Assembly: GCA_964467625.1 (NCBI GenBank)
Contig: CAYXRM010000001.1
Coordinates: forward strand, 516,986-580,985
Origin: an uncultured Gammaproteobacteria bacterium
GTDB lineage: Bacteria; Cyanobacteriota; Vampirovibrionia; Gastranaerophilales; Gastranaerophilaceae
Reading direction: 5' to 3'
Length of the DNA stretch: 64,000 nucleotides
Below are positions 8,366-24,605 of this stretch, one piece after another. Position 1 is the stretch's first letter. Each line of letters begins with the position of its first letter. Below the pieces are notes generated by a model. The model made no database searches, was not told the DNA's origin, and saw nothing but the letters and a program-made list of their open reading frames with translations. A program made the position numbers and the translations under genes.

Positions 8366-9259
8366 TTACATCCAATCGTTTGCAAACGCTTTTGTTGGGT
8401 GGTTGACGCAGGTATAACATTTCTCTGTGTCTAACAATACCCTTCTTGAGCAGCATTCAACTGTATATCCCGACCGTGCTCTAAAATCGTTGCTCAAAAC
8501 GGGGCATGTGTAAATTCCTTTTGAAGTCATTATTCTTGAATTTGCACAATCTAATCTTTCCTCATTTATGGTTTCATCTTCAATTTGCCTTGAATTTTCA
8601 AGGTGTGTATTAAAATAAGGAGAGATTTTTAAATTAATTTGCCCCATTTCAAAACCAAACTTCCTGCAAAGTTCAGAAAACCCTTCAAATAAGGTTTCTC
8701 TTTTTTCTCCATAGTAGTCTGTGACTGTTATAATTGGATTAAAGTCATATTTATAAAGATTTTGAAGCGCAAACAGAGCCTTTCTAAAGCTTCCTCTGCC
8801 TCTTACTTTGTCATTTTTTATTTCATCAAAATGTTCAAAACTTATTCTGTAAATGGTTTCATAGTCTGATTCATCGTCAATTTTTCTTAAAAATCTTGCT
8901 TTTTTATCATTAATAAATGTTCCGTTTGTCATAACCGTTGTGTTTGAAATTTTTAAACACATTCTTAAAATCGAATTAAAATCAGGGTGCATCATAGGCT
9001 CTCCACCTGTTAAATACAAAGATTTAATTTTTTCATTCCTTGATTGAATAAGCGCCTGTTTAATTTTTTCAATAGGCAGAAAATCTTTTTCTTTTTTAAA
9101 CGGATTTTGCTGAATATAACAGTGTGAGCACTTTAGGTTGCATGTTTTTCCCGTTAATTCAAAAAATAAATTGTTTAACTCCTTCATCTGTACAACGGGC
9201 GCCTGCATAAAAGACACCCTTTGAGCGTTGTGTAACTTTTGCACTTTAATATTCTCCAT
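8366..9259 (-). CDS. Radical SAM protein with Cys-rich C-terminal domain
   Basis: CNLKCSHCY is a CxxxCxxC radical SAM cluster motif. GGEP follows, and extra cysteines lie near the C-terminus (CPVL...CC...CYTC). The track start at 9295 is TTG. I prefer ATG 9259 (MENIKV) but either is possible. Confidence 0.65.
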   Translation of the reverse strand: MENIKVQKLHNAQRVSFMQAPVVQMKELNNLFFELTGKTCNLKCSHCYIQQNPFKKEKDFLPIEKIKQALIQSRNEKIKSLYLTGGEPMMHPDFNSILRMCLKISNTTVMTNGTFINDKKARFLRKIDDESDYETIYRISFEHFDEIKNDKVRGRGSFRKALFALQNLYKYDFNPIITVTDYYGEKRETLFEGFSELCRKFGFEMGQINLKISPYFNTHLENSRQIEDETINEERLDCANSRIMTSKGIYTCPVLSNDFRARSGYTVECCSRRVLLDTEKCYTCVNHPTKAFANDWM

Positions 9260-9363
9260 AACCTTTTCTTGACACAAGTCATGATAGAAATTCAAATTTA
9301 AAATAAAATTACACAGGCGGATAAATTAATTTTTAAAAGGTGATTAATCCTTAAATATAAATT

Positions 9364-9942
9364 TTAAGTTTTAGTATAATATCTAAGCTTAAGATTTGCG
9401 ATTAAGACACTTTTATCTCTTTTCCAAGAAACAATTTCCACTTCAGCTATATTAATTAAGTAAGTTTCTGCAAGAAGGGTCTTTAAAAAGGCTTGAATTG
9501 CAGAGTAATTGCCTACAATTGTGGTTGTTAATTCACAAACATTAACCCCTGTAACTTTTGCGGAAAAAATAGGGTCGCCTTCGGGGGCATAATTGTAATC
9601 TACAGACCTAATCCTAACACCTGAAGCTTTTGCAATTGATACCATATCATCAAACAAAGGTGCAAAGGAAGCGTTAGAGCCAAACCTTAAACCTTCAAGT
9701 GTATAAATTTTCTTAATGTCGGGGCTGTTTTCTTCACGTTTTTGCTTTGCTATATCCGCTTGAAGTTGAGTTTTCTTTGCAACAAGCGTTTCATATTCTT
9801 GAGTTTTGTTCGATAAGTCAGAATGAACAGACATATAAGTCCCGCCAAACCCTATTGTTCCTGCAAGAGAAGCAATTAAAATAATGAGCGGAAGAAATAC
9901 AAATATGTGTTGTTCTTTTATTAAATCTCTATAGTTTATCAT
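9364..9942 (-). CDS. PilO-like type IV pilus assembly protein
   Basis: 192 aa with one N-terminal TM helix, a coiled-coil segment and a globular C-terminus. Abuts the PilM/PilN-like gene with no intergenic gap. Assignment rests on architecture and context only. Confidence 0.45.
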   Translation of the reverse strand: MINYRDLIKEQHIFVFLPLIILIASLAGTIGFGGTYMSVHSDLSNKTQEYETLVAKKTQLQADIAKQKREENSPDIKKIYTLEGLRFGSNASFAPLFDDMVSIAKASGVRIRSVDYNYAPEGDPIFSAKVTGVNVCELTTTIVGNYSAIQAFLKTLLAETYLINIAEVEIVSWKRDKSVLIANLKLRYYTKT

Positions 9943-11634
9943 CTACTTTGCTTCCTTTAAGTTAGGGTCAACGTCCGGCACTTTAGGAACTTTAGTAGCG
10001 GAACTTGCCGCCCCTTCTCCTTCTTTACCTTCTTCTGCTGTTTTTTTATTACCCTTATCATCAAAAGTTTTTTCATAAGTTGTATTTGAAATTTCAAATG
10101 CAAAAGTCTGTTCGGCATTATTTTCATTTAAGACAATTGCGTCAATGTCATTACCTGTCTGCGTTTGATCTTCTCTAAAGACATCCAGTTTGTTTAATTT
10201 AATATCAGACTGCGGAGCGAGCATTTTTAAGCTTTGATAATAAGAATAGACATCGTTCATATTAATGGAAAGCCCCTCAATTCCAACTTCTTTGCCGTTT
10301 TTGTTTATATAATAGGTTAGCCAAACATTAGACGGTATATCAGTTGAAAGTGAGTCATAATAATTTATTGATTGTTTATTGTTTTCGCTTATTTCTTTAA
10401 TAAGGGTCACAATGCTTGTTTTTAAAGTGGTTTCCATTTGCTGGATTTCCATATTTATGGTTGATATATCGGCATTTTTGGCTTCTAGTTTGGATGAGTC
10501 TGCTTGAAGTGCCGAGAAGGCAAGTCCTGTAAAAATACCACCCACAATGCCCAATAATACTGAAAGTTTAATGCTTGTGGAAAGCACATTTGAGGCTGTT
10601 AATTCAACATCTTTGCCAAAAAGTTTAATTGTGCCATAGCTTGTGTTGCCGTCATAATTTGCACTTCCCATAATGTTCAAATTTGCAAAATTTTGAACTT
10701 TGGGATTGGCTGCTCCAAGGGCACCTAAACTCATTGAAGCTGCTGTTTGCTTGATGACTTCTGCTGAAATACTTACTTGCGGAGCCGTTGAAAACCTGTT
10801 TGAGTTAAAGGTGACAACTGTTTCGTCAAATACAATCGCATTTTTCAGGATGTTTGCGGAAACATTGTCCACCTGAGATACAAGAACAAGTTTTTCAGCA
10901 GGGTAATTGGGAAGATACTGTGACAGAGCTGATGACAGTGCAGAATAAATTTCATCTCCCTCAAAGGACATAACGGCAAAAGGAACTTCCACATAATCTA
11001 AAATTCTGCTTCCTGACATTTGGAAAATAGCATAATTATTAGAATTAATTAAAACAATATCCCAATTTTTTCCGCCTTCAATTACATCATCGCACAAACC
11101 TGTAAGCGCAAGCCCTCTTGGAATTGCACTTACCGCACTTTCAATACCGATAATGGTTCCGCCAATATCCATAATGGCGTCTTGAATTTCATTGACGGCA
11201 TTTGTCTGCATTGCAGAATATAAAATATATTTAGAGGTGGCAGCAGTTCCCGCATTTACATTTGTCCAAGCGCAAAGCGGTTCTTCCTGTTTGAAAATAT
11301 ATGACTGTGCAGTTTCTTCAAGAACAATTGTGTCGATTGCTTCATTATCATAATAAGTTTCTTCAATACTTCTAAAGCCTGAATACACGTTTGGCAGAAC
11401 AAGGAAAATATTTGCAGTTTCTTTTTGAATATCAAGTTCGGCAAATAAATCAACAAGCGCATTTCTGAAAGCGTTTATATCCAAAATTGAGCGTGTCGCA
11501 ATGTTGTATTCTATAAACTTTTGACTGTATTTAAGAACTTCTTTTTGTTCATCACCGTAAAGAAGAACCTCAAGCCCCAAATTAGGTGTTATACAAAGCC
11601 CTACTATTTGTTTTTTATTTTTTTTAGCAAACAT
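9943..11634 (-). CDS. PilM-PilN fusion-like type IV pilus assembly protein
   Basis: 563 aa. N-terminal ~340 aa is an actin-like PilM-type region (IVGLCITPNLGLEVLL...). Then a TM helix (LSVLLGIVGGIFTGLAFSAL), a coiled coil and a PilN-like segment (PSNVWLTYYINKNGKEVGIEGLS). Confidence 0.5.
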   Translation of the reverse strand: MFAKKNKKQIVGLCITPNLGLEVLLYGDEQKEVLKYSQKFIEYNIATRSILDINAFRNALVDLFAELDIQKETANIFLVLPNVYSGFRSIEETYYDNEAIDTIVLEETAQSYIFKQEEPLCAWTNVNAGTAATSKYILYSAMQTNAVNEIQDAIMDIGGTIIGIESAVSAIPRGLALTGLCDDVIEGGKNWDIVLINSNNYAIFQMSGSRILDYVEVPFAVMSFEGDEIYSALSSALSQYLPNYPAEKLVLVSQVDNVSANILKNAIVFDETVVTFNSNRFSTAPQVSISAEVIKQTAASMSLGALGAANPKVQNFANLNIMGSANYDGNTSYGTIKLFGKDVELTASNVLSTSIKLSVLLGIVGGIFTGLAFSALQADSSKLEAKNADISTINMEIQQMETTLKTSIVTLIKEISENNKQSINYYDSLSTDIPSNVWLTYYINKNGKEVGIEGLSINMNDVYSYYQSLKMLAPQSDIKLNKLDVFREDQTQTGNDIDAIVLNENNAEQTFAFEISNTTYEKTFDDKGNKKTAEEGKEGEGAASSATKVPKVPDVDPNLKEAK

Positions 11635-11762
11635 TTTTTACTCTTTTTTTTTAAATGTTCAACATTATAAATTGTACTATTATTCAGTATTCATAATACA
11701 ATAATAAGTACATGCGTTGAAAGTATCTTAACAAAAATATACAACATTTGGAGTAAATCGCA

Positions 11763-12503
11763 ATGAGTGAATATATTTACGGGAAAAATTCCGTCATAGA
11801 AACCCTAAATACGGTACCTTCGAGGGTTAACAAAGTCTTAATCCAAAAAGGGGCGGGGCTTGACAGCCGATTAAAAAAAATTATCGAACTTTGCAAAAAT
11901 TATTCAATTATTTTTAATTTTGTTGACTTGAAAAAATATTCATCCAATTTTGAAGAAAACACAAATCTTCAAGGAGTTATTGCAAGCGTTTCGCCTGTTC
12001 CATATAAAGATTTTGAAGAATTTTTGGAAGAAGCCAAAGAAAATGAATATCGCAAAATTATTATTTTAGATGGGGTTACAGACCCGCATAATTTTGGTGC
12101 CATAATAAGAACCGCAACGGCGGGCGGGTATGATGCCATTATTATTCAAACTCATAGATCATGCCCGATTAGCGCAACGGTTGAAAAAATTTCTTCAGGT
12201 GCAGTTAATAAAATTCCAATCATAAAAGTAAATAGCCTAAATAGCGCAATTCAAAAATTAAAAGAAAATGACTGGTGGATAATTGCATTAGATGTTCACA
12301 CAAGTAATAATTATCTTGACGTTGATTACAAAAACATGAATTTTGCTCTTGTTTTTGGAAGCGAAGGGGACGGCATTAGTAAAACAATCCTGAAACTTTC
12401 GGATTATAAAGTTAAGTTACCGACAAATTTTGAATCTCTAAATGTTTCTTGTTGTTGTGCCGTTATAGTATATGAAACTTTAAGACAAATAAATTATACA
12501 TAG
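11763..12503 (+). CDS. rlmB: 23S rRNA (guanosine-2'-O)-methyltransferase, TrmH/SpoU family
   Basis: 246 aa. SpoU motifs: ILDGVTDPHNFGAIIRTA, ALVFGSEGDGIS, IKLPTNFESLNVS. Confidence 0.8.
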   Translation: MSEYIYGKNSVIETLNTVPSRVNKVLIQKGAGLDSRLKKIIELCKNYSIIFNFVDLKKYSSNFEENTNLQGVIASVSPVPYKDFEEFLEEAKENEYRKIIILDGVTDPHNFGAIIRTATAGGYDAIIIQTHRSCPISATVEKISSGAVNKIPIIKVNSLNSAIQKLKENDWWIIALDVHTSNNYLDVDYKNMNFALVFGSEGDGISKTILKLSDYKVKLPTNFESLNVSCCCAVIVYETLRQINYT

Positions 12504-12505
12504 GA

Positions 12506-12533
12506 TTGCAAAATCTTCCCCTTATACTAGTAT
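12506..12533 (+). promoter_or_regulatory. Candidate promoter for rpoD
   Basis: TTGCAA (12506-12511), 16 nt spacer, TAGTAT (12528-12533). AGGAG RBS at 12546-12550. Confidence 0.3.
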
Positions 12534-12555
12534 GAAATAAAAATCAGGAGAAATT

Positions 12556-13551
12556 ATGAAAACAAAAACCCCGAAATCTAATAAGTCTAATGAAATATTT
12601 GAATTTGAAGATTTTGACGACACCCAAATTGAACTTATCGAGCAATCTGAAGACGAAGAAAACGAAAATAAAAATCTTAAAGAAGATTATAAAAATGTCA
12701 CAACGGACGATTCCGTGAAAGCCTATTTGCAACAGATAGGGAAAATTCCGCTTTTGTCTTTTGAAGATGAAATGAAAGTTGCAAAAGAAATTAAAGAAAA
12801 TAACTCTATAAAAGCAAAAGAACAGTTGGTTAATTCAAATTTAAGACTTGTTGTTTCAATTGCCAAAAAATATATAGGTAGAGGACTTTCTTTTCTTGAT
12901 TTAATTCAAGAAGGTAATTTGGGGCTGATTAAGGCGGCTGAAAAATTTGATTACGAAAAAGGATATAAATTTTCAACATATGCAACTTGGTGGATACAAC
13001 AATCCATAACACGTGGAATTGCCGATAAATCAAGGATGATAAGGCTTCCTGTTCATATGATTGAAACTTTGAGTAAAATTAAACGCACGACTTTTGATCT
13101 TTCGATTGAACTTGGCAGAATGCCCACAAAAGAAGAAATTGCAGAAAAAATGAATATGCAAACTTCAAAATTAACCCAGCTTTTAAAAGCCGCACAAGGG
13201 ACAATTTCAATTGAAACGCCGGCAAATCAAAAGGATGATTCCTCTAAAATTGCTGATTATATTGTGGATGAAACTGATTCCACACCAGACACAAAAGTCA
13301 CACAAGACAATTTGCTCGATGATGTTAAAAAAATTCTTGACCAATTAAACCCGAAAGAAAAAGATGTTTTAATTTTAAGATACGGGCTTGATGACAACGG
13401 CAGGAAAAAAACCTTGGATGAAATTGGAAACAGATACGGAGTTTCAAGGGAAAGAATTCGGCAAATTGAAACCCGTGCAATTTCAAAATTGAAAAAGCTT
13501 TGCAGAAACCAAAATTTAAGCAACAATTTAAAAAATTATCTTGGTATTTAA
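12556..13551 (+). CDS. rpoD: RNA polymerase sigma-70 family factor (RpoD/SigA-like)
   Basis: 331 aa. Region 2 ([39 protein letters not shown]), region 3 and region 4 ([20 protein letters not shown]) are all present. Confidence 0.9.
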
Positions 13552-13694
13552 TAAATTCTGCTCTATCCATATTAGAATTACAATAATTGCCATCTTGAAG
13601 GTGAAGATGACAATGAGGGGCGTGTAATGTCTTTAGGTATGTTGTTTTAAGTTTTTTAATATCTCAATAATTAAACACCCATAAATTTGTTTAG

Positions 13695-13725
13695 ATAAAA
13701 AACCCTTTAAAAAAAATTTTAAGGG
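13695..13725 (-). terminator. Rho-independent terminator downstream of the pilin relic
   Basis: On the minus strand CCCTTAAAA / TTTTAAAGGG forms an AT-rich hairpin with one bulge, followed by TTTTTTATC. It lies 26 nt after the relic stop at 13751. Confidence 0.35.
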
Positions 13726-13750
13726 AAAAATATTGTTATATATAGTTTTT

Positions 13751-14092
13751 TTATTTGTCATACATTGCCCTTTGGGCAACAATCCCAAATGGAATAGCTT
13801 TATCTTCCGTAATTAAAATGTTGAAGATATCGTTCAATCTTTTATCTGTAACTTTTGGATATGTGTATACTCCTGAACCTTTTGTTTCATTAGATAAAAT
13901 CATATTCGGTTTTCTATCCCCGTTCACATCAACCAAGATAAAACAAGGAGGCATTGTTGTATTGTTTGGATTTTCATCTAAACCGTATGAACCGCATTCA
14001 CCGGCACCGGCACGAGAACCTAAGCCGCCATTATTTACTATAATATCCGTATCATGGAGCTTAAGCCTTGGAAAAACAAAATAACCATTTGA
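13751..14092 (-). pseudogene. Truncated pilin-like gene relic (C-terminal half only, no prepilin leader)
   Basis: The open frame reads ...ECGSYGLDENPNNTTMPPCFILVDVNGDRKPN...AIPFGIVAQRAMYDK*. It aligns with the C-terminal half of the 43240-43989 pilin-like protein (GCGSYGLRHNPLNSKIPPCFVVVDVNGDSGPS...AIPFGTIAQKAMYSK*). An in-frame TAG at 14093-14095 closes the frame upstream, and no N-terminal AFTLAE helix is encoded. Confidence 0.6.
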
Positions 14093-14110
14093 CTATATAT
14101 TTTTTTCTGT

Positions 14111-14119
14111 GGTATACTT
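14111..14119 (+). promoter_or_regulatory. Candidate extended -10 promoter element for rimP-nusA
   Basis: TGgTATACT at 14111-14119. No good -35 was seen. Confidence 0.3.
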
Positions 14120-14165
14120 TTTTTGTTCGACATATATGTCGGCTAAAATCGCAATAATCAAAAAA

Positions 14166-14200
14166 AGAGCGGTAACAACAAAGTAACCGTTCTTTTTTTT
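14166..14200 (+). terminator. Intrinsic terminator / attenuator hairpin in the rimP-nusA leader
   Basis: AGAGCGGTAAC (14166-14176) pairs with GTAACCGTTCT (14183-14193): 11 positions with one A.A mismatch and one G.U, and a 6-nt loop. It runs into a T8 tract (14193-14200). The AAGGGGG RBS follows at 14215-14221. Confidence 0.5.
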
Positions 14201-14223
14201 CAAAATATCAAACGAAGGGGGAT

Positions 14224-14718
14224 ATGATGAAGGAACGCTTTAATAAGAAAGAAGTTTTGACAAAAATCTATCCTGTTATTGAAAATACTGCAATGCGATA
14301 CGATTTAATTCCTTTGGAAGTTTCCCTTGAAAAGGAGTCGGGGCATTGGTTTTTGAGAATTTATATATATTCTATGAAGCACCCCGTTAACCATCAAGAT
14401 TGCGAAAATATTTCAAGAAGCTTGGGGGATTTGTTGGATGAGCTTATTCCTTTTAAATATTATTTGGAAATTTCGTCCCCCGGACTTGATAAAAAACTTA
14501 AAAACCCTATTGAGTTTCAAATATTTAAAGGGCATAGCGTTTGCGTTAAGTTAAAAAATCAAATTTCAGAAGATTTGCCCAAAAGCTTTAAGGGAAAACT
14601 TGTGGATTATAGCGAAACTTTTGGAATTAGGGTTTTATCTTATGACACAAACACTGAATATGACATAAGTTTGGATAACTTATTTACAATCAGATTGAAC
14701 GATATAGAAGAAATATAA
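14224..14718 (+). CDS. rimP: Ribosome maturation factor RimP
   Basis: 164 aa. LEISSPGLDKKLK is the RimP signature (EVSSPG.DRPL type). Immediately upstream of nusA. Confidence 0.85.
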   Translation: MMKERFNKKEVLTKIYPVIENTAMRYDLIPLEVSLEKESGHWFLRIYIYSMKHPVNHQDCENISRSLGDLLDELIPFKYYLEISSPGLDKKLKNPIEFQIFKGHSVCVKLKNQISEDLPKSFKGKLVDYSETFGIRVLSYDTNTEYDISLDNLFTIRLNDIEEI

Positions 14719-14729
14719 GGAGAAAAAGG

Positions 14730-15893
14730 ATGATTAAAATTGGTACCGCACTTTTTGAAGCGGCTGAACAATTGGAAAGAGAAAAAGGAATTTCAAAAGA
14801 AGTTTTAATTGAAGCGCTTCAAGACGCCCTTGTTGCGGGATATAAAAAACATATTAAAGATAAAGATGCTGAAAATGTTGAAGCTATTATGGATGAAGAA
14901 TCAGGCGAAATCGGTGTTTTTAGAACAAAACTTGTTGTTGAAAATGTTGAAAATCCTGATGTTGAGATTTCTCTTGAAGATGCAAAAGAAATTGACGATG
15001 AAGTTGAACTTGAAGATGAAGTTAAAATTGAAGTTACACCCGAAGACTTTGGCAGAATTGCGGCACAGTCTGCAAAACAGGTTATCACTCAAAGAATTAG
15101 AGAGGCTGAAAGAAAACTTGTTTTGGATGAATTCTTATCTAAAAAAGGCACTCTTATTACAGGTATAATTCAAAGAAGAGATGAGAGAAATGTTATTGTT
15201 AATATAGGTAAAACTGATGCTATAATGCCTGCAAAAGAACAACTTCCGGGGGAATATTACAAACCCGGGAACAGAATAAGAGTTTTTGTTTTGAATGTTA
15301 AAGAAACAACAAGGCTTCCGCAGGTTATTGTTTCTCAAGCGCACAGTGAAATTGTTCGTGAACTTTTTGAACTTGAAGTTCCTGAAATTGAAGACGGTAT
15401 TGTTGAAATTAAGTCAATCGCCCGTGAAGCAGGCTTTAGAACGAAACTTGCAGTTTGGTCAAATGACCCTTCAGTGGATTCCGTTGGTGCTTGTATTGGG
15501 CCAAGGGGTTCTAGAATTCAAACAATTGTGGGCGAATTGAAAAATGAAAAAATTGACATTGTAAGATACTCGGAAGACCCTGTTGAATACATTGTAAATG
15601 CGCTTTCTCCTGCAAGAATAGTTTCTGTAGATATTTTGGCGGACGAAGAAAATAAACACGAAGCTTTCGTTATTGTTCCTGATGATCAACTTTCTCTTGC
15701 AATTGGCAGAGAAGGTCAAAACGTGCGTCTTGCACACAGATTAACCGGTTGGAAGATTGATATTAAATCTGAATCTCAAGCGGCTCAAATGGAAAAACAA
15801 GTTAAAGCTGAACCTGAACAAGTGCAGGAAGCCGAAATTGAACAAGCACAAGAAACAGAGGCTGAAGCTTTAACAGAAACATCTGAAGGGTAA
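14730..15893 (+). CDS. nusA: Transcription termination/antitermination factor NusA
   Basis: 387 aa with an N-terminal domain, an S1 domain (GTLITGIIQRRDERNVIVNIGKTDAIMP) and KH domains (GACIGPRGSRIQ, AIGREGQNVRLA). The tail is acidic. Confidence 0.9.
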   Translation: MIKIGTALFEAAEQLEREKGISKEVLIEALQDALVAGYKKHIKDKDAENVEAIMDEESGEIGVFRTKLVVENVENPDVEISLEDAKEIDDEVELEDEVKIEVTPEDFGRIAAQSAKQVITQRIREAERKLVLDEFLSKKGTLITGIIQRRDERNVIVNIGKTDAIMPAKEQLPGEYYKPGNRIRVFVLNVKETTRLPQVIVSQAHSEIVRELFELEVPEIEDGIVEIKSIAREAGFRTKLAVWSNDPSVDSVGACIGPRGSRIQTIVGELKNEKIDIVRYSEDPVEYIVNALSPARIVSVDILADEENKHEAFVIVPDDQLSLAIGREGQNVRLAHRLTGWKIDIKSESQAAQMEKQVKAEPEQVQEAEIEQAQETEAEALTETSEG

Positions 15894-16780: not shown

Positions 16781-17578
16781 ATGATTACATTTAAACAAAC
16801 TCTTACATATTCTGCCCTGCGTATGTTTTTTGGCGAAATTAAAGATTTTTTAATTATGACAGGAAACATAGGGAAAGATTTATCAAGGGTTTTTTATTAT
16901 ATTTTGCGTCTTAGAATAAATTTAAAAATAATGATAGAACAGGCTTCAAGGTTTGCCGTGGATAGTTTACCCATAACTTTAACAATTGTTGGGATGACAA
17001 GTGTGATTATTGCCATGCAAATTGCGCCGGAGCTTGCAAAACAGGGGGCGGAAAATTATATCGGAATGCTCTCTGCCCTTGTTATGATAAGGGAATTATC
17101 CTGTATTATGGCAGGGTTTGCAATAATTTCAATGATAGGTTCATCCTTTGCTTCAGAACTTGCTTCAATGGCGGTGGGCGAGCAGATAAGCGCAATGAAG
17201 GTTCTAAAAGTTGACCCTATAGAATACCTTATTGTTCCAAGGTTTTTGGCGGGTGTTTTTATGATGCCTTTCGTTTTTATTTTGGCTTCTTTTGTGGGGC
17301 TTGTGTGTGCAGGGGCAATATCTTACCTGACGGCGGGGCTTAGCCCTTTAAATTATATAACTTCAATTTGGCAAGGTTTATATATAAGAGATATTATGAT
17401 TGCAATGTTGAAATCAGCGTTTTTTGGCGGCACAATTGCGCTTATAAGCTGCTCTTGCGGATATTCAACAAGGGGCGGAGCAAAAGAAGTCGGTATTGCA
17501 ACAACCAAAGCGGTTGTTTGGAGTTTTGTTGCAATTGCGGTTTGGGATTATATTTTCGCTGTCATATTTTATTTATAG
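16781..17578 (+). CDS. mlaE: Mla/Ttg2-type ABC transporter permease
   Basis: 265 aa, polytopic. MlaE-like segments: VDSLPITLTIVGMTSVIIAMQ, GGAKEVGIATTKAVV. Confidence 0.8.
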   Translation: MITFKQTLTYSALRMFFGEIKDFLIMTGNIGKDLSRVFYYILRLRINLKIMIEQASRFAVDSLPITLTIVGMTSVIIAMQIAPELAKQGAENYIGMLSALVMIRELSCIMAGFAIISMIGSSFASELASMAVGEQISAMKVLKVDPIEYLIVPRFLAGVFMMPFVFILASFVGLVCAGAISYLTAGLSPLNYITSIWQGLYIRDIMIAMLKSAFFGGTIALISCSCGYSTRGGAKEVGIATTKAVVWSFVAIAVWDYIFAVIFYL

Positions 17579-17587
17579 GAAAAAGTT

Positions 17588-18316
17588 ATGGGTATAATTG
17601 TTAAAAATTTGGTTAAATCTTTTGACGGTAAAAAAGTTTTAGATGAAGTTTCCTTTTCGGTGCAGGACGGTGAAACTCTTGGAGTTGTCGGTTTTTCAGG
17701 AAGTGGAAAATCTACGCTTTTAAAAATTATCTCCAACCTTTTATATTCTGATTCAGGGGATATTGCAACAAGTGCGGGCGCTGACATTGCAATGACATTT
17801 CAATATTCAGCTTTGTTTGATTTTTTAGATGTTTATCATAACATTGCCTTTCCTCTTTTGGAGAGAAAAGAATATAAGGGTAAATACACAAAAGATGAAA
17901 TTAAAAAAATTGTAAAAGAAAAATTGGCGCTTGTTGGCCTAGAGGGGATTGAAGAAAAATTTCCTTCTGAATTATCAGGCGGTATGCAAAAGCGTGTTGG
18001 GTTTGCCCGTGCAATTGTAACCAACCCCAAAACAATTCTTTATGATGAACCAACAGCAGGTCTTGACCCTGTAAGCTCCACTTTGATTGAAGATTATATT
18101 GTGCGCCTTAAAAATGAACTGAATGCTGCCTGTATTGTGGTGACACACCAAATGTCCACAATTAAAAGGGCATGCGATAATGTAATTTTATTGTATGAAG
18201 GAAAAATTGTTTTTCAAGGGAAAACAGAAGAATTTTTAAAAGGCGACAACCCTTACACAAAACAGTTTATAGAGGCATCTTTAGACGGGCCTATGGAAAT
18301 TAAATCAGCGATATAA
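17588..18316 (+). CDS. mlaF: Mla-type ABC transporter ATP-binding protein
   Basis: 242 aa. Walker A GFSGSGKST, signature LSGGMQKRV, Walker B ILYDEPTAGLD. Confidence 0.85.
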   Translation: MGIIVKNLVKSFDGKKVLDEVSFSVQDGETLGVVGFSGSGKSTLLKIISNLLYSDSGDIATSAGADIAMTFQYSALFDFLDVYHNIAFPLLERKEYKGKYTKDEIKKIVKEKLALVGLEGIEEKFPSELSGGMQKRVGFARAIVTNPKTILYDEPTAGLDPVSSTLIEDYIVRLKNELNAACIVVTHQMSTIKRACDNVILLYEGKIVFQGKTEEFLKGDNPYTKQFIEASLDGPMEIKSAI

Positions 18317-18401
18317 TTTAAAATATTTTTTTTAAAAAAGTGCTTCAAACCCTTATTATCTTTGCTTTTTAAGCTTTATTTTTATGCCAAATTTTAAAAT
18401 C

Positions 18402-18410
18402 TGCTATGAT
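18402..18410 (+). promoter_or_regulatory. Candidate extended -10 element ahead of the MuF-motif gene
   Basis: TGcTATGAT at 18402-18410. AAAGGA RBS at 18435-18440, ATG at 18446. Confidence 0.25.
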
Positions 18411-18445
18411 AGATATATTAAGTATTTCTATTAGAAAGGAAATAT

Positions 18446-19825
18446 ATGGCTAAATATATTTTTCACAGTGAAAAAAGCAAAACAACATGCGCAGAATGCA
18501 CAAAACTGGATGGGAAGGTCTATGGCGATATAAACAATATTCCAAAATTGCCAATTCATCCAAATTGCAGATGTTGGATAGAAACTATTGAAGATAAAAA
18601 ATCAACAAGTCACCCTTGCGATTGCAGGAAAAGATTGGAAGTTATTCAAAATAATATAGAAAATCTTATTATTAATTTAGGTAATATATCAAAAAGTATA
18701 AATAATGAAATATATGAAACAGAAATTAAGATTGATGATGCGAAAGAAAACAACAATAAAAAAGTAAATCTTCAAAAGGTACAAAATAAATTGGTAAATC
18801 TAAAGGAAGAATTTCAAACGTTTACTAAACAAACAAAAGATTTAAACACGGATATTTTATTTTTAAAAGATAATGCAAACGAGCTTGAACACACAAAAGA
18901 AGAATGCAATATAGATAAAGAATTAAGTGAAATAAATAAAAAAGCAAAAACTTTTTTAAGTGAAATCAATAGATATTCTGAAAACTTAAAGCAATTAAAA
19001 GAAGATGTTAATTGGGTTGAGAGAGCTGAAGCATTGAAACAAAACGGAACTACAACAGGTATTGCCGCAGATGTTGATATCGGTTCTAAAACTTCTAAAA
19101 ATACTAATTGGTTTGGGAAGGTTGAATTGAGTGAAAAGGAAGTAAATAAAAATGTTGACTATAAGCAAAAAGCAATAGAATTTGCTATAGGTAATAACTA
19201 TAATAAAATCTTGTATAAAGCTGCAAAAAAATTTTCAGGAGAAGACACTGCAGGCATGCTTGATATAGCCCATGAAAAAAGAAATGATGAAGAATATACA
19301 AAAGATGCAATTAAATTAAAGAATTGGGATGATCCAAGAGTTGCATCAAATAAGAAGAAAATAAAAGAAAAAGTATCAAAAGAATTTAAGGATTATGGGT
19401 TTAACATAGATGAAATCCCCGGATATTTCTTTAAAAGTACTTCTGAACCCGTTCAAAGACTTATTCAAAATGAAGATTTTAGAAATATTATAAGAAAACA
19501 TAAGGCGAATATTTTAAAAGGAGAAAATTTTTCTGGCGGTTTTCCAGAGTATACTAACCAAACAAATGCTCCTTGGTTGATTAATAAAATGTTGAAAGAA
19601 AACAATTTTAAAAATGCTTTTGGAATAGTTGAACTTTTGACCCCTTTCTTTGATAAAGAGGGTAATTTGCATATTAAAATGTTTGATACTTATGATTTTA
19701 ATAAAGGTGAAAATATTCTTGTGGAAGCAGGCAGAGTTAAAATGCTAGAAAAAGAATTAAAACCCTTTTTTACAATCCATGATATAATTATCAAAAAAGA
19801 AGAGCTTAAATATTTTGGGTTGTAA
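18446..19825 (+). CDS. MuF/SPP1-gp7-motif protein with coiled coil and unknown C-terminal domain (candidate polymorphic toxin)
   Basis: 459 aa. Residues 15-44 (CAECTKLDGKVYGDINNIPKLPIHPNCRCW) match the C-terminal zinc-ribbon-like signature of the phage Mu F / SPP1 gp7 head morphogenesis domain. Residues ~60-200 are heptad-rich coiled coil. I do not recognise residues ~200-459. No signal peptide. Confidence 0.5.
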   Translation: MAKYIFHSEKSKTTCAECTKLDGKVYGDINNIPKLPIHPNCRCWIETIEDKKSTSHPCDCRKRLEVIQNNIENLIINLGNISKSINNEIYETEIKIDDAKENNNKKVNLQKVQNKLVNLKEEFQTFTKQTKDLNTDILFLKDNANELEHTKEECNIDKELSEINKKAKTFLSEINRYSENLKQLKEDVNWVERAEALKQNGTTTGIAADVDIGSKTSKNTNWFGKVELSEKEVNKNVDYKQKAIEFAIGNNYNKILYKAAKKFSGEDTAGMLDIAHEKRNDEEYTKDAIKLKNWDDPRVASNKKKIKEKVSKEFKDYGFNIDEIPGYFFKSTSEPVQRLIQNEDFRNIIRKHKANILKGENFSGGFPEYTNQTNAPWLINKMLKENNFKNAFGIVELLTPFFDKEGNLHIKMFDTYDFNKGENILVEAGRVKMLEKELKPFFTIHDIIIKKEELKYFGL

Positions 19826-19830
19826 AAAAG
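19761..19830 (+). repeat. Junction repeat, copy A (intact: toxin 3' end plus start of next gene)
   Basis: Encodes KPFFTIHDIIIKKEELKYFGL* and overlaps TTG-GGT-TGT-AAA (MGCK) of the next ORF. Related copies lie at 20385-20462 and 22322-22400. Confidence 0.7.
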
Positions 19831-20381
19831 AAATAACAGAATATTTTTTAAGGGTTTTTTGTTTTGCCGTTGTTGTAAAATGTGCTTTTGATATTGTCTG
19901 CATAATCGGAATAATAGTTTTCTTACCTTTTTCAGTATTGGTGCTTAAGGTTTTTGATCTTTTGTTTATAATATTTGATAAATGCGGATATTATTTTTTG
20001 GTTGAAAGTTTTGAATACAGTTATGATGTCTATATATTTTCTTTTTTTGGGTTATATTTTCTATCAAAAATATTAGGTATATTTAAAAAAATAAACAAAT
20101 TAAACTTTTTTCTTTCCCTTTTTATAATATGTTTAATAAGCTATATGCTTGTTTTGTTTGGCAGAATAAATTTTTTAGTAGATAAAAATACTTATGAATT
20201 GGGGCTTAGATATTTTTATACAATGTATTTATTAATTCCTTGTTATTTATTGTATAAAGTTTTTAATTTCTTATCTTCAAAATTTATCATCTTTGAAAAA
20301 ATCGGCTATTACACTTCAATTGAATTTTATAAAAATTTGTACAAGAAAATATCTAATCATGGTAAGCATGATAATAAATAA
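19815..20381 (+). CDS. Small multi-pass membrane protein (candidate cognate immunity)
   Basis: 188 aa with a TTG start overlapping the upstream stop by 11 nt. About 5 hydrophobic helices, very AT-rich. No family recognised. Confidence 0.4.
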   Translation: MGCKKEITEYFLRVFCFAVVVKCAFDIVCIIGIIVFLPFSVLVLKVFDLLFIIFDKCGYYFLVESFEYSYDVYIFSFFGLYFLSKILGIFKKINKLNFFLSLFIICLISYMLVLFGRINFLVDKNTYELGLRYFYTMYLLIPCYLLYKVFNFLSSKFIIFEKIGYYTSIEFYKNLYKKISNHGKHDNK

Positions 20382-20384
20382 CTA

Positions 20385-20462
20385 AAACCTTTTTTTTACC
20401 ATACATGATATAATTATCAAAAAAGAAGAACTTTAACACTTATGGGGTGTAAAATGCAAAAA
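20385..20462 (+). repeat. Junction repeat, copy B (orphan toxin tail plus MGCK start)
   Basis: 20386-20436 reads NLFFTIHDIIIKKEEL*. That gives 14 of 16 residues identical to the tail of the 459-aa protein, closed by an AAA to TAA change relative to copy C. ATG-GGG-TGT-AAA follows. Confidence 0.65.
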
Positions 20463-21197
20463 AGAAACGTTGCATACATACTAATGATTATTATCAAAAT
20501 TATAATGATTATAATATTTGTGCCTTTTTCTTTTGAGCTTATTTTTGGCTCGCTTTCTCAGCCATATGAAACTGTGGTACAAAATGCATCTATAATTTTA
20601 ATTGGGCTTATTCCTGTTTTGATATGCCACTTTCTTTCAAAGTGGGTAAAAAAAACAACTAATATTTTTGTTAAAATATGTTCAATATTATTATCTGCTT
20701 TTTTATTGCTTATACTTCCCATATATGCACTGATCGGGTTGTTTAATTGTGCTTTGATTTGTGATGATCCGCCTATAAACCCTTATAATAAGTCAAGATA
20801 TGAAGTAATGCTTTCAAAGATGCCAAGTGCAAAAGAGCGTGCCAAACATTTTCCACATAGAATTCCAAAAGATGCTAAAGATTATTATTTTCTCCGTGAA
20901 TGGTCTTTTAGTGGATATAATGTGCATTATTTAAAATTTAGTACAAATGAAAATTATATTAATAAAATAATTAATGATAACAAAGATAAAATTGTTCATA
21001 AATTAAATTCAAACAATGTGGATGATTATTATAAATTCGTTCCATATAGGGCGCTGAGCGATAGTGCCAATTGCACTATATACATTTTAAAAAATGAAAA
21101 CAACGACAATGATTATACACCAGGAATTATAACTTCAAAATCAAATGAAATTCTTTTTTTCTATTCTAATTTTGATTTAAAGGGAAACAGATATTGA
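20442..21197 (+). CDS. Membrane-anchored protein, island paralogue 1 (candidate orphan immunity)
   Basis: 251 aa with three N-terminal TM helices and a ~143-aa soluble domain. Paralogue of 22378-23133. The true start may be the internal ATG at 20454 (GGGGTG upstream). Confidence 0.5.
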   Translation: MGCKMQKRNVAYILMIIIKIIMIIIFVPFSFELIFGSLSQPYETVVQNASIILIGLIPVLICHFLSKWVKKTTNIFVKICSILLSAFLLLILPIYALIGLFNCALICDDPPINPYNKSRYEVMLSKMPSAKERAKHFPHRIPKDAKDYYFLREWSFSGYNVHYLKFSTNENYINKIINDNKDKIVHKLNSNNVDDYYKFVPYRALSDSANCTIYILKNENNDNDYTPGIITSKSNEILFFYSNFDLKGNRY

Positions 21198-21259
21198 TAT
21201 TTATGAATAATAAATTTTTAAAATATTTAATAAAAGCGAAGGTATGATATTATAAATAC

Positions 21260-21763
21260 ATGCACAAAGAAATTTCTGGACTGATTAAATATTTGTCTTT
21301 AGTTTTTGTTCTGCAGGGCATAGCTTATATTTCCTGTTATTTTTGGATGTGTATATTTTTTAGCAGTTTAGTGGATGAACAAGATGAGTTTTTAATAAAG
21401 CTTTTCTCTTTTGATTTTTTTTATGAAATATTTCCAATAATTCTTTTTATTGTTTTGACATTTATTGCTTCTCTTTTTATTATCTTGACTAAAACATTTC
21501 TTGATAAAAAAGAAAGTAAATACCTGACTTGTTTTTTTGATAATCTTTTATACCCGACAATTGCATTGTTGATTGTAGTTTTATGCAGAATATATTTTAA
21601 TCTCTATATTTCGTACCTGATTATGTTTATCGCTATATATTTTGTGGGGTTTATAAGAAAGTTTGCAAAGCCTTTATATAATCACATATCTATTGTCATT
21701 TTTCTTTTGTGGGGATTGGTTATTTATTGCATAATGGGAAACCGTTGTATCTTTAATTTTTAA
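21260..21763 (+). CDS. Small multi-pass membrane protein
   Basis: 167 aa with 4-5 hydrophobic helices. No recognisable family and a weak RBS. Confidence 0.35.
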   Translation: MHKEISGLIKYLSLVFVLQGIAYISCYFWMCIFFSSLVDEQDEFLIKLFSFDFFYEIFPIILFIVLTFIASLFIILTKTFLDKKESKYLTCFFDNLLYPTIALLIVVLCRIYFNLYISYLIMFIAIYFVGFIRKFAKPLYNHISIVIFLLWGLVIYCIMGNRCIFNF

Positions 21764-22235
21764 ATTGTTGAAAATTTAATTCATCATCAAGAACACCATT
21801 TTGTTTATAAAAAGTATATAGATATAAAAATCCGCTCAAATCTTTTATGCGGGTTTTTATATATTCATATTTATCAGAAGCGGCAGCAAGGCAAGGAAGG
21901 TAAGGATGGCAGTTTTTTTCATAGGTTTGCTTTAATAAAATATTATGCTGTTTAATAAATTCTTCCCACTTTTCTTGAGATCTCAAAAGTTCTTCATATT
22001 CAGCTTTTGGAAGAATATCCTTTGCCCCTTTAATTGTTTTTTTAATCTCTTGATTATATTTTTCATATCCTTCATAAGTGCACAACATCATCATACGGTC
22101 TGTTTGATAGTTTGCATTAATACAATTTTGAGTTTCATTGTCAATTTTTTTAATGGTTTCACTAGATGTGCAATATGACGCAAAAGCAGGGTTGGTTGCA
22201 AATAAAAATATTGTTAAAAGAAGAAATTTTTTCAT
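21753..22235 (-). CDS. Secreted DUF1311 (LprI-like) family protein
   Basis: 160 aa with signal peptide MKKFLLLTIFLFATNPAFA. Four spaced Cys and the pattern T..MM..C......Y...I........L......L..SQ..W..F resemble DUF1311/LprI. Confidence 0.45.
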   Translation of the reverse strand: MKKFLLLTIFLFATNPAFASYCTSSETIKKIDNETQNCINANYQTDRMMMLCTYEGYEKYNQEIKKTIKGAKDILPKAEYEELLRSQEKWEEFIKQHNILLKQTYEKNCHPYLPCLAAASDKYEYIKTRIKDLSGFLYLYTFYKQNGVLDDELNFQQFKN

Positions 22236-22253
22236 AAATTAATTATAAGTTTA

Positions 22254-22377
22254 AGCGGTTTTTATATCAAGGAAAGGAAACCGCCAATTCATCCAAATTA
22301 CAAGTGTTCAAAGCAAATTTAAAAGGCTTTTTCACTGTTTGTGAGATAATAATTAAAAAAGAAGAACTTAAACACTT
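22254..22377 (+). pseudogene. Internally deleted relic of a second MuF-motif gene
   Basis: 22254-22322 reads SGFYIKERKPPIHPNYKCSKQI*, compared with LDGKVYGD..LPIHPNCRCWIE in the intact gene. 17 nt are identical (GCCAATTCATCCAAATT, 22283-22299 vs 18549-18565). In another frame, 22322-22377 reads KGFFTVCEIIIKKEELKHL, compared with the tail KPFFTIHDIIIKKEELKYF. Confidence 0.45.
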
Positions 22378-22400
22378 ATGGGATGTAAAATGCAAAAAAG
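22322..22400 (+). repeat. Junction repeat, copy C
   Basis: A tail-like segment followed by ATG-GGA-TGT-AAA-ATG-CAA-AAA-AGA-AAC, almost identical to copy B from 20421 onward. Confidence 0.65.
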
Positions 22401-23133
22401 AAACGTTGCATACATAATAATCAATATTATCAAAATCATAATGATTACTATATATACACCTTTTTCTTTTGTGCTTATTTTGTTTACTATCTGTAGTCCT
22501 TATGAAGCTATGATATGGAATATGGTTATATTTCTTATTGGGCTTGTTTTTATTTTTGCATGCCACTTTCTTTTAAAGTGTGTAAATAAAACAACCGATA
22601 TTGATACTCGAATATGTTCAATATTATTATCCATTATTCTTTTATTTATTTTACTTATATATATGTGTGCCGGGTTTCAAAAATGCACTAATATAAATTC
22701 AGATCCGCCTATAAACCCTTATAATAAGTCAAGATATAAAGCAATGCTTTCAAAAATGCCAAGTGCAAAAGAGCGTGCCAAACATTTTCCACATGGAATT
22801 CCAAAAGATGCCGCAAATTATTATTTTTTCCGTGACAGGTCTTTTTTTGAAGACAAAGAACATTATTTAAAATTCAGTGCAAATGAAAATTATATTAATA
22901 AAATAATTAATGATAACAAAGATAAAATTGTTCATAAATTCAATTTAAATAATATAAGTGATTATTATAAATTCGTTCCATATGACGGCTTAAATGACAG
23001 TGCCAATTGCACTATATACATTTTAAAAAATGAAAACAATGACAATGATTATACATCAGGAATTATAACTTCAAAATCTAATGAAATTCTTTTTTTCTAT
23101 TCCAATTTTGATTTAAAGAAAATAAGACGCTGA
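22378..23133 (+). CDS. Membrane-anchored protein, island paralogue 2 (candidate orphan immunity)
   Basis: 251 aa, colinear with 20442-21197. By manual alignment there are 46 differences in the first 108 residues and 25 in the last 143. Confidence 0.5.
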   Translation: MGCKMQKRNVAYIIINIIKIIMITIYTPFSFVLILFTICSPYEAMIWNMVIFLIGLVFIFACHFLLKCVNKTTDIDTRICSILLSIILLFILLIYMCAGFQKCTNINSDPPINPYNKSRYKAMLSKMPSAKERAKHFPHGIPKDAANYYFFRDRSFFEDKEHYLKFSANENYINKIINDNKDKIVHKFNLNNISDYYKFVPYDGLNDSANCTIYILKNENNDNDYTSGIITSKSNEILFFYSNFDLKKIRR

Positions 23134-23192
23134 CATTTGTGCGGCATAAAAGTTTCTTATAGCCCAAAAAGGGGATTTATTAACTTTCTTAT

Positions 23193-23222
23193 TTGGCAAA
23201 AAAATGTTTTTCATTGTATAAT
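23193..23222 (+). promoter_or_regulatory. Candidate sigma70-type promoter for mlaD-lpxK
   Basis: TTGGCA (23193-23198), 18 nt spacer, TATAAT (23217-23222), 30 nt upstream of the ATG at 23253. Confidence 0.4.
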
Positions 23223-23252
23223 TAGTCGTGAGATAGAATGAAAGGCCCCTAA

Positions 23253-24605
23253 ATGACCGTAAATAGAAAAGTTTCTTCATCTTTAAAAGTCGGGATTTTG
23301 ACGATTGGGGCGCTTCTTATTCTTATTTTTACCGTTCTTTGGATAAAAGGAAGAAGTTTATCTTCAGGGGAGAGGATTGAAGTTATTTTCCATGATATAA
23401 ACGGTATCCGTGCAGGCTCCGGCGTGCAGATGATGGGTCTTAGAATCGGGCAAATTGAAGAAATTATACCCGTTGTAAACGGTAAAGATAGTCATGTTAA
23501 AATTCGTTTTGTTATAACAGAAAAAGGGGTTAAAGTTCCGGAAGCCTCGACAATTTCAATTCAACAGTCAGGGTTAATTGGGGAACAGTTTTTGGAAGTT
23601 ATGCCCCCGAAGGTTGAATATCTTTATCTTGAAACTTCAAGAAATAAAACATTAATTGAAGAAAATCAAGAAATTTATATGGTTTTATCAAATGAACTTA
23701 AAAGAATAGGCAGAGTTGATATTGCAAATGTTATTCCAAAGGCGGCTGCCCCACTTGAATACCGTTCACAGTTGAAGGGGCAAAACGTACTTAAAATTGG
23801 ATACATTGTTGATCTTCCGGGGTTGATTTTGGATAAGGAAAATTTAAACGCAAAACTTATTCAAAATAAACTTGTTTTTGAAACAAAAAATGGGGTTAAA
23901 CTTGAGATGCCAAACACAAATTCTCCCTATACGGTGATTGAACCGATGAGAATAAGTGATTTTCTTGAATTGCAATATAAAACAGCACACTCTTTGACAT
24001 CTATGAATGAAAGAGTTATGGAGATTTTATCGGACGACTTTATTGCCGATATTAAAGAATCCATGAACAATATTAATGAAATTACCCAAAAGGCAAATTC
24101 CACAATTGAGAAGGCAAACACTTTGATTGATTCTTCAAAAGACGAAATTGATGAAATTCTTGTCCAAACTTCAATTTTGACAAAGAAACTGAATGTCTTG
24201 TCGGATAATGCAAACGCTCTTGTTTCAAGTGAGGAATTGAAGGGTGCAATTAAATCTGTTAACAGGTTTGCAAAAAATGCAAATTCATACCTTGAAAAAC
24301 CAGAAGCAAAAGAAATGTTTGAAAATTTGAATGAAATTTCAAGAAATTTGGCGGACATTTCTTGCTATGTAAACGAATTTACAGGGGATGAAAAGTTAAG
24401 AAATAATTTAAAAGAATCTGTTGAAAATATAAACAAAGCAATGAAACAGGTGAACACAAATTTGGCGGAAATAAATTCTGTAAGCGGGGAAGAAAAGCTT
24501 TCAATCAACAATGCAATAACAGACGCTATTGTGACAACAAGAAATCTTAAAAAATTCTCAGAAAAATTGAATAAAAGATTTTTATTATTCAGGTTAATGT
24601 TTTAG
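23253..24605 (+). CDS. mlaD: MCE-domain protein (MlaD-like) with long helical C-terminal extension
   Basis: 450 aa. N-terminal TM (LKVGILTIGALLILIFTVLWI). MCE domain (INGIRAGSGVQMMGLRIGQIEEI...SIQQSGLIGEQFLEV). The last ~200 aa are coiled-coil-like. Confidence 0.75.
   Translation: MTVNRKVSSSLKVGILTIGALLILIFTVLWIKGRSLSSGERIEVIFHDINGIRAGSGVQMMGLRIGQIEEIIPVVNGKDSHVKIRFVITEKGVKVPEASTISIQQSGLIGEQFLEVMPPKVEYLYLETSRNKTLIEENQEIYMVLSNELKRIGRVDIANVIPKAAAPLEYRSQLKGQNVLKIGYIVDLPGLILDKENLNAKLIQNKLVFETKNGVKLEMPNTNSPYTVIEPMRISDFLELQYKTAHSLTSMNERVMEILSDDFIADIKESMNNINEITQKANSTIEKANTLIDSSKDEIDEILVQTSILTKKLNVLSDNANALVSSEELKGAIKSVNRFAKNANSYLEKPEAKEMFENLNEISRNLADISCYVNEFTGDEKLRNNLKESVENINKAMKQVNTNLAEINSVSGEEKLSINNAITDAIVTTRNLKKFSEKLNKRFLLFRLMF

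Follow-up and report, generated by a model that had tools for sequence, protein, structure and literature searches.

Our results suggest that positions 18317-23252 of a 64,000-nucleotide stretch of contig CAYXRM010000001.1 (assembly GCA_964467625.1, positions 516,986 to 580,985 of the forward strand; this whole stretch is called the window below), from an uncultured bacterium of the Gastranaerophilales, are probably a horizontally acquired polymorphic toxin-immunity island. The largest gene of the block encodes a 459-amino-acid (aa) protein, p459, whose C-terminal domain, here named the CT domain, would act on the cell envelope unless neutralised by p188, a membrane protein encoded next to it. 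Gastranaerophilales are uncultured, non-photosynthetic relatives of cyanobacteria that live in animal and human guts; no account of competition systems in them came to our notice, although no literature search was aimed at the matter. An earlier reading of the sequence alone, hereafter the original prediction, had described the block as a candidate decayed polymorphic toxin-immunity array that splits an Mla operon. The array reading is supported by domain shuffling, by the linkage of toxin and partner genes and by orphan genes beside toxin relics; the word decayed suits the orphan modules, but not the p459/p188 pair, which is intact. The defining logic of polymorphic toxins is that N-termini and C-terminal domains occur in many combinations (Zhang et al. 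2012, PMC3482391), and it is this logic that the block and its relatives follow.

The mlaE neighbourhoods of 27 related genomes were retrieved and the proteins of the window were mapped on them with tblastn. The window belongs to a diderm bacterium with a GC content of 32.9%, and its mlaE is 67-83% identical to the genes of these genomes, most of which are labelled Candidatus Gastranaerophilales, Vampirovibrio or Melainabacteria. In all 27 relatives mlaE, mlaF and mlaD are contiguous, with a gap of about 30-160 bp between mlaF and mlaD, and lpxK comes next after mlaD wherever the contig reaches that far. In the window the same genes stand on either side of the block: mlaE (16781-17578, +; Pfam MlaE, E 1.9e-61) and mlaF (17588-18316, +; ABC_tran, E 8.3e-28) upstream, and mlaD, which encodes an MCE-domain protein (23253-24605, +; MlaD, E 1.4e-13), followed by lpxK (LpxK, E 1e-77), downstream. 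None of the six island proteins had a tblastn match at any of the 27 mla loci, so that the block is not a conserved feature of this position among these relatives, and the proposed splitting of the operon by an insertion is established. The base composition agrees with the original prediction too. The island has a GC content of 26.2%, compared with 33.4% for the rest of the window, and windowed GC values make it the longest low-GC run there; the example that had been given, 9 G/C in one line of the island against 28 in one line of mlaF, is exact. The six open reading frames (ORFs) that had been proposed for the block are all found in it. Searched against Pfam, PHROGs, NCBIfam and PADLOC, they returned only sub-threshold matches to MuF and LprI, and coiled-coil noise, and neither the island nor p459 had a match in the GenBank phages or in the PLSDB plasmids.

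p459 (18446-19825, +) is encoded by an intact gene and consists of a MuF zinc-knuckle motif (CxxC...PIHPNCRC), a coiled coil at residues ~60-200 that serves as linker, and the CT domain (residues 241-454; 19166-19807, +), which is the predicted toxic domain and carries a DxYDFN motif. Some 60 proteins, 260-440 aa long, have a C-terminal part with about 50% identity to the CT domain, and one protein (P0002) is a full-length homologue of p459, with 36% identity over 466 aa. An exhaustive profile search of 1.84 billion cluster representatives returned 474 at E ≤ 0.001, 289 of them at E ≤ 1e-10. In the members examined the domain is found at the C-terminal end, and it is preceded by at least six N-terminal types, namely a short MuF zinc motif, a WxExxHPRDxxGxF motif (the HPRD motif), a HVxAYTRxDGTxVxxHYR motif, a REDIGKMS...NEKAID leader, a plain coiled coil, and long regions of YD/RHS repeats. 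A single C-terminal domain therefore stands behind several unrelated N-termini. Among the repeat-bearing relatives, P0122 (1460 aa), P0185 and P0195 match Pfam RHS_repeat with 28.6-30 bits (cut-off 22) and hold 10-12 YDxxG motifs each; P0207 has nine such motifs and no Pfam RHS match. At one further locus, L122, a 1143-aa RHS/YD-repeat protein that ends in a CT domain (8855-13432) adjoins a DDE transposase and an L1-L11-NusG-SecE cluster. This locus is also Gastranaerophilales-like, its L1, L11 and NusG being 74-82% identical to those of the window.

As judged by these searches, the CT domain appears to be a previously undescribed, widespread family of C-terminal modules. No Pfam model matched it in any of 101 members, in which only matches to the N-terminal MuF and VG15 motifs recur, and nothing was found for it in NCBIfam or PADLOC. 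Profile searches against PDB sequences gave coiled-coil or low-complexity matches only. No match was present in 50,697 GenBank phage records, nor in an IMG/VR scan with the patterns of our alignment A1. The AlphaFold2 model of the domain is confident (predicted local distance difference test, pLDDT, above 93 in the core; predicted template modelling score 0.80), but when it was compared by Foldseek, neither the PDB (best E 0.038) nor BFVD (best E 0.09) yielded a significant match. The best of these, to the C-terminal domain of BtpeA, an effector of a type VI secretion system (T6SS), was rejected as noise (E 0.038, probability 0.21, template modelling score 0.22). The best-conserved positions of the family are DxYDFN, which is nearly invariant and spans residues 414-419 of p459, one lysine and one glycine. 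Two subtypes can be told apart by their ends: A-type domains end in FFTIHDIII, as does p459 (...FFTIHDIIIKKEELKYFGL), and B-type domains in FFTVCEIII, of which P0033 is a full-length example and the gene of locus L120, which ends in ...GFFTVCEIIIKKEELKQYGL, another. In the B type (P0033, L120 1-375 and window 22304-22398) the otherwise nearly invariant histidine of the FFTIHDIII strand is replaced, which means that the residue has no catalytic role or that the B type acts in another way.

The start of p459 is shared with other toxin-like domains. Residues 1-45 (18446-18580, +) correspond to the final stretch, ~45 positions long, of the phage MuF/SPP1 gp7 domain; the matches, to Pfam Phage_Mu_F (E 0.0026, 18.9 bits, cut-off 29.6) and to TIGR01641 (E 0.0011), are both below the cut-off. 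The MuF motif announced by the original prediction is thus real, but it is partial, covering profile positions 65-110 of 112, and p459 holds no complete MuF domain (PF04233, PF06152, MuF3 or MuF4). We regard the homology as genuine because 101 relatives of the motif turn up in IMG/VR viral contigs, at 33-50% identity. It starts 14 residues into p459, compared with a median of 221 residues from the ORF start in 68 phage ORFs, and the truncated start, M-x-KY-x-x-HSE, is shared by at least nine independent proteins, which indicates a stable architecture and not a one-off decay. The same module precedes other domains. In P0074 (198 aa) it is joined directly to a T4-type lysozyme (Phage_lysozyme), and in locus L008 (ENA ERZ28573574, scaffold_360) an ORF at 13425-14456, 37% identical to residues 1-186 of p459, joins the module and the coiled coil to Peptidase_M23, and a decayed fusion of the module with Phage_lysozyme lies at 15097-15841. 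One N-terminus is accordingly found with several C-terminal domains (CT, Phage_lysozyme and Peptidase_M23). Another N-terminus is common, in L008, to a CT-domain protein (P0017) and an ORF for a GH108 muramidase. A scan of metagenomes for the MuF N-terminal module gave one short contig only.

The remaining short N-terminal motifs of the family point in the same direction. The HPRD motif has 144 relatives in IMG/VR and the HVxAYT motif is present in six viral contigs, and all three short motifs of the CT-protein family are phage-typical. The more general form W[DN]ExxHPRxxxGxF, with which many CT proteins start, recurs as a kind of punctuation in viral contigs (L124-L202, e.g. L190, L158 and L139), up to five times within one and the same phage ORF (1200-1700 aa); for this motif neither a Pfam model nor a description was found, and the repeats may mark processing sites or domain boundaries of large virion proteins.

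The gene downstream of p459 encodes p188, a 188-aa multi-pass membrane protein (19815-20381, +) with a TTG start and an 11-nt overlap with the p459 gene. It is 29-37% identical to membrane proteins encoded after CT genes in four other loci (L002, L005, L007 and L008), and in most of the loci examined between one and three genes for small, divergent membrane proteins, each with several hydrophobic segments, come after the CT gene. There are three tandem paralogous partners in L121, two each in L123 and L008, and one in L203. The island further encodes two 251-aa proteins, p251a (20442-21197, +) and its paralogue p251b (22378-23133, +), with three transmembrane helices and a C-terminal alpha/beta domain, and a 167-aa multi-pass membrane protein, p167 (21260-21763, +). 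By hydropathy, the proteins of all three sizes have several transmembrane segments, as had been predicted; the paralogy of the 251-aa pair also held, with 72% amino-acid and 81% nucleotide identity. Only four relatives of the 251-aa proteins were found in the databases; the gene of one, P0069, comes immediately after an intact B-type CT gene in L120 and overlaps with it. A-type CT domains therefore pair with partners of the 188-aa type and B-type domains with those of the 251-aa type. This tracking of the CT subtype by the partner is what is expected for specific immunity, and in most loci a downstream partner that co-varies with the toxin domain is present as gene linkage. On the basis of these relationships, p188 is predicted to be the cognate immunity protein of the A-type CT domain, and p251a and p251b are putative orphan immunity proteins for B-type domains. 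The AlphaFold2 model of the 251-aa type, built on a shallow alignment (mean pLDDT 67), shows three long helices and a soluble domain of 130 residues, which is predicted to be periplasmic because of the positive charges at the N-terminus. DcrB, SciW and EagT6 were considered as its fold and set aside, since their matches were not significant (E 0.03-0.3). p167 had no family match in Pfam, PHROGs, NCBIfam or PADLOC and no homologues were found for it; from its position it is possibly a further orphan immunity gene.

Between these genes lie two relics of the large gene, both of which had been noticed in the original prediction. Relic 1 (20368-20462, +) duplicates the 3' end of an A-type toxin gene and is fused with the first codons of the gene behind it. 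It belongs to direct-repeat family D2, with 73% identity over 95 nt to the 3' end of the p459 gene; its translation, NLFFTIHDIIIKKEEL followed by a stop, is of the A type, and 14 residues of it, FFTIHDIIIKKEEL, are identical to p459. Relic 2 (22270-22398, +), directly before p251b, is an internally deleted B-type toxin gene, in which copies of the 5' PIHPNxxC motif (22278-22308) and of the 3' end (22304-22398) now adjoin each other. The repeat families concerned are D8 (84%) and D2 (66%), and the translations are ERKPPIHPNYKCS, which contains the zinc motif, and ANLKGFFTVCEIIIKKEELKHLWDVKCKK, which matches the B-type ending of P0033 and L120. Both relics run into the MGCK start of the next gene, so that a junction of toxin 3' end and partner start occurs three times in the island. 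Similar relics of CT 3' ends flank partner genes in L005 and L008. Together with at least three orphan partner genes, the two relics provide the displaced fragments and orphans that are looked for downstream of a polymorphic toxin. Recombination at this junction, where the conserved 3' end of the toxin gene meets the opening codons of the partner (MGCK), may have brought in new modules or swapped existing ones, which would explain why the junction is repeated.

The remaining gene of the array, on the opposite strand, encodes a 160-aa protein with a signal-peptide-like N-terminus (21753-22235, -). The original prediction called it a DUF1311-like secreted protein; the signal-peptide-like N-terminus is there, but the match to Pfam LprI (PF07007), although it spans positions 1-106 of 106, stays below the cut-off (E 0.0018, 19.1 bits against 22). 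A homologue with 52% identity lies in L008, tail-to-tail with the GH108 muramidase ORF and inside the toxin array. DUF1311/LprI has been described as a lysozyme-inhibitor and T6SS immunity domain (PMC12135965), and the gene is probably an orphan immunity gene, coding for a lysozyme inhibitor directed against muramidase-type toxins.

L008 (7900-16200) holds a much richer array of what appears to be the same system. Besides the fusions described above, it has two tandem membrane proteins of 109 and 115 aa and a relic of a CT 3' end fused to a gene of the 188-aa type. The M23 fusion is followed there by a gene for a signal-peptide protein on the opposite strand. A pair of two-partner secretion (TPS/ShlB) genes is located 5 kb downstream of the array, and a terminase large subunit gene 9 kb upstream.

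Taken together, the data suggest how the island might work. The CT domain would have its target in the cell envelope, on the outer face of the inner membrane or close to it, and p188, as an overlapping polytopic inner-membrane protein, would block this activity. The remainder of the island would be an archive of orphan immunity genes, in which the B-type toxin genes have been reduced to relics of about 100 nt. We infer an envelope target because all the partners are membrane proteins, because the domains that swap places with CT are peptidoglycan hydrolases, and because the 251-aa type is modelled with a soluble domain predicted to be periplasmic; the LprI-type inhibitor, found in two of the arrays, counts in the same direction. 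Several points weigh against this interpretation. The envelope target is derived from context, and the DxYD motif resembles that of colicin M only in part; the toxicity of the CT domain and the protection by its partners are likewise read from sequences and gene order. Within subtypes, CT domains keep about 50% identity, a fair degree of conservation for the part that is the most variable one in classical polymorphic toxins. In the RHS-type relatives the repeat core does not close with the canonical PxxxxDPxGL, and no partner is visible downstream of the RHS-type CT genes in L122 and L037. Finally, p459 has no signal peptide and, by hydropathy, no hydrophobic segment, and beyond the sub-cut-off MuF fragment it has no recognised trafficking domain: LXG, PAAR, TPS and T6SS features are all missing from it, as the original prediction had pointed out. 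No secretion system and no portal, terminase or capsid gene was seen in the island, in the parts of the window that were scanned, or in eight of nine loci, so that a contact-dependent or secreted role is a putative one.

The phage-like start of p459 raises the question of whether the island is the leftover packaging module of a prophage, with p459 being a degraded MuF-type toxin that is packaged in the capsids of a resident or former prophage and injected together with the DNA. Such delivery of MuF toxins is an established proposal (PMC3482391, PMC5576092). It would agree with the homology of the N-terminal motif to phage MuF ends (the 101 IMG/VR relatives), with the phage-typical character of the other two short motifs, and with one relative from a viral contig, where genes for a tail protein and for the small subunit of a terminase are neighbours of the relative and its membrane partner. 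We nevertheless consider it unlikely. About 200 MuF residues are absent and the truncated start is conserved in at least nine proteins; moreover, 85-87% of true muf genes are near a portal or terminase gene (PMC5576092), and no portal, terminase or capsid gene accompanies the island or eight of the nine loci. The failure of the CT domain to match the GenBank phage records, or IMG/VR in the scan with the A1 patterns, argues in the same sense. Envelope genes specific to the lineage and serving Mla lipid transport could also be imagined, given that the block sits within the mla cluster and that four of its six products are membrane proteins and another has a signal-peptide-like N-terminus. This is hardly credible, since synteny effectively refutes it: the block is absent from all 27 related mla loci, its GC content is foreign, it contains gene relics, and its homologues are located at unrelated chromosomal sites.

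Two further explanations keep the toxin-like proteins and change their role. The lack of a secretion signal in p459 and of a secretion system nearby, the tight, overlapping gene pair, the scattering of the modules over variable chromosomal sites and the proximity of some of them to restriction-modification or helicase genes (L002, L121) would all suit an intracellular toxin-antitoxin or abortive-infection pair, in which the toxin acts in its producer, is restrained by the membrane protein and is never exported. The N-terminal modules, however, also carry lysozyme, M23 and GH108 domains, whose substrate is outside the cytoplasm, and fusions to RHS repeats are typical of exported toxins. Orphan partners beside relics and a periplasmic lysozyme inhibitor fit immunity to incoming toxins better, and PADLOC offered no model beyond coiled-coil noise; an intracellular pair is therefore a distinctly unlikely account of the island. 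A cassette for lysis or holin-dependent export, in which enzymes without signal peptides would escape through holin-like pores formed by the small membrane proteins, is very improbable. It accounts for the interchangeable T4-type lysozyme, M23 and GH108 domains, which are typical of endolysins, for the adjacent small multi-pass membrane protein in most loci, and for the missing signal peptides of the enzymes. It does not account for membrane partners that co-vary with the CT subtype, which argues for specific recognition, nor for the tandem paralogues among these partners or the orphans next to defunct toxin genes. The 251-aa type, with its 130-residue soluble domain, the M23 fusion in L008, which is followed by a signal-peptide protein and by no membrane protein, and the RHS fusions, which are not endolysins, are equally difficult to reconcile with holins.

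If the island encodes toxins and immunity proteins, as we favour, the question of how the toxins leave the cell has to be considered. The original prediction held that the delivery route would have to be new, which is more than the data show. The phage-type N-terminal motifs, the RHS relatives and one phage context make a phage-derived or RHS-type delivery possible. The phage context is that of L203 (IMGVR_UViG_3300020011_000225), where a CT gene and the gene of a 193-aa multi-pass membrane protein (2905-4300) adjoin, in a viral contig, genes for a tail protein and for the small subunit of a terminase (phrog_51, E 5.5e-16); it came from a hidden Markov model search of all retrieved loci and is the only phage context found for the CT family. 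A bolder reading is that the CT domain would be a new class of enzyme that attacks a membrane-linked component of the envelope from the periplasm, and that the phage-derived tags would mark a delivery route of the Gastranaerophilales that has not been recognised. We hold this to be rather unlikely, and the same applies to its further element, a route that would need neither a prophage nor a classical secretion system, such as a domesticated phage-like particle.

The system shares features with several known families of toxins. Like the MuF polymorphic toxins (Jamet et al. 2017, PMC5576092; PMC3482391), p459 has a MuF-homologous N-terminus, an interchangeable toxin-like C-terminus, a small partner gene immediately downstream and one relative in a phage contig. 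It differs from them in that only the last ~45 of 112 Pfam MuF positions are kept, with a score below the cut-off, in that its gene is neither in a prophage nor beside a portal or terminase gene, and in having a CT domain for which no Pfam model exists and partners that are polytopic membrane proteins. With the Rhs/YD-repeat toxins it has in common that CT relatives are found at the C-terminal tip of YD-repeat proteins (781-1460 aa) and that the loci contain orphan partner genes and toxin relics. Unlike these toxins, p459 itself has no YD repeats, its RHS-type relatives are without PxxxxDPxGL, and no T6SS, PAAR, VgrG or TcdB/TcaC-type genes were seen beside these relatives. A likeness also exists to the peptidoglycan-hydrolase effectors of T6SS (PMC12135965), which are modular, have lysozyme, amidase or peptidase C-termini and are adjacent to immunity genes with signal peptides; the DUF1311/LprI-like gene in two arrays is a counterpart of the latter. 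The loci examined contain, in contrast, neither T6SS genes nor T6SS-specific N-terminal domains.

The closest functional analogy for the putative CT toxin, and an analogy only, is the colicin M family. These bacteriocins degrade lipid II on the outer side of the inner membrane; immunity to them is conferred either by integral membrane proteins, such as PmiA with three transmembrane segments, or by membrane-anchored periplasmic proteins (PMC8469651). Both designs recur here, in the 188-aa and the 251-aa type, and DxYD is the start of the colicin M signature. The full signature, DxYD(x5)HR (PMC8469651), is not present in the CT domain, where no HR follows DxYDFN, and none of the 50 Foldseek PDB matches listed is a colicin M-type structure, so that membership of the colicin M family was rejected. 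In further contrast to colicin M, the CT proteins have no receptor-binding or TonB-box domains and no sequence match to a solved structure.

The left junction, with the 5' untranslated region of the p459 gene (18317-18445, +), begins directly past the mlaF stop codon, and the promoter-like matches in it are no commoner than chance; in this AT-rich DNA a scan for promoters and terminators was uninformative, with 31 promoter-like sites compared with 35 expected by chance. On the right, the TTGGCA-18-TATAAT promoter that had been reported before mlaD does exist (23193-23222, +), with TG before the -10 box and 11 of 12 consensus positions, and it marks the edge of the insertion. Its extended -10 part, the element TGTATAAT (23209-23222), just upstream of mlaD, is kept between mlaF and mlaD in the eight Gastranaerophilales spacers inspected, all from relatives that have no island. 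The promoter is therefore ancestral and was not made by the insertion. An insert that landed past the end of mlaF but ahead of an mlaD promoter already in place would not inactivate the Mla operon, and the island is probably tolerated because of this landing site. The conserved spacer element also suggests that mlaD and lpxK normally use an internal promoter, apart from mlaEF. As the original prediction stated, the borders show no mark of a mobile element: there is no tRNA at them, and no integrase or transposase domain was detected in the six island ORFs or the adjacent genes scanned. The genes around the island are housekeeping genes (dxr, a sigma-70 factor, rimP, nusA, bioB and ribosomal proteins), and the flagellar gene fliF is farther off.

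Some other features of the window may be mentioned. The MlaD homologue has 450 aa, of which only residues 39-119 are the MCE domain, followed by about 300 residues with weak matches of coiled-coil type; this length is kept in all 27 relatives. A second patch of low GC (~26%) occurs at 1001-2500, inside a 551-aa ORF (687-2342, -). Two more ORFs have no Pfam match at E ≤ 1e-5, one of 759 aa (32027-34306, -) just past the NusG/tRNA-Trp region and one of 563 aa (9943-11634, -).

Polymorphic toxin loci with new C-terminal domains turn up regularly, and the category itself is not new. What is unusual here is the undescribed CT domain, the truncated MuF tag outside prophages and the membrane-embedded proteins that are predicted to confer immunity. 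The pairs of an A-type domain with the 188-aa protein and of a B-type domain with the 251-aa protein are ready-made constructs for a test. The fact that a stable fragment of 45 MuF residues heads modular, presumably toxic proteins outside prophages raises the question of its binding partner and of the route by which these proteins leave the cell. The present results add a candidate family of toxin domains, with 474 clusters, a confident model and no significant Foldseek match, to the repertoire of polymorphic toxins, and place this family in the poorly studied Gastranaerophilales.

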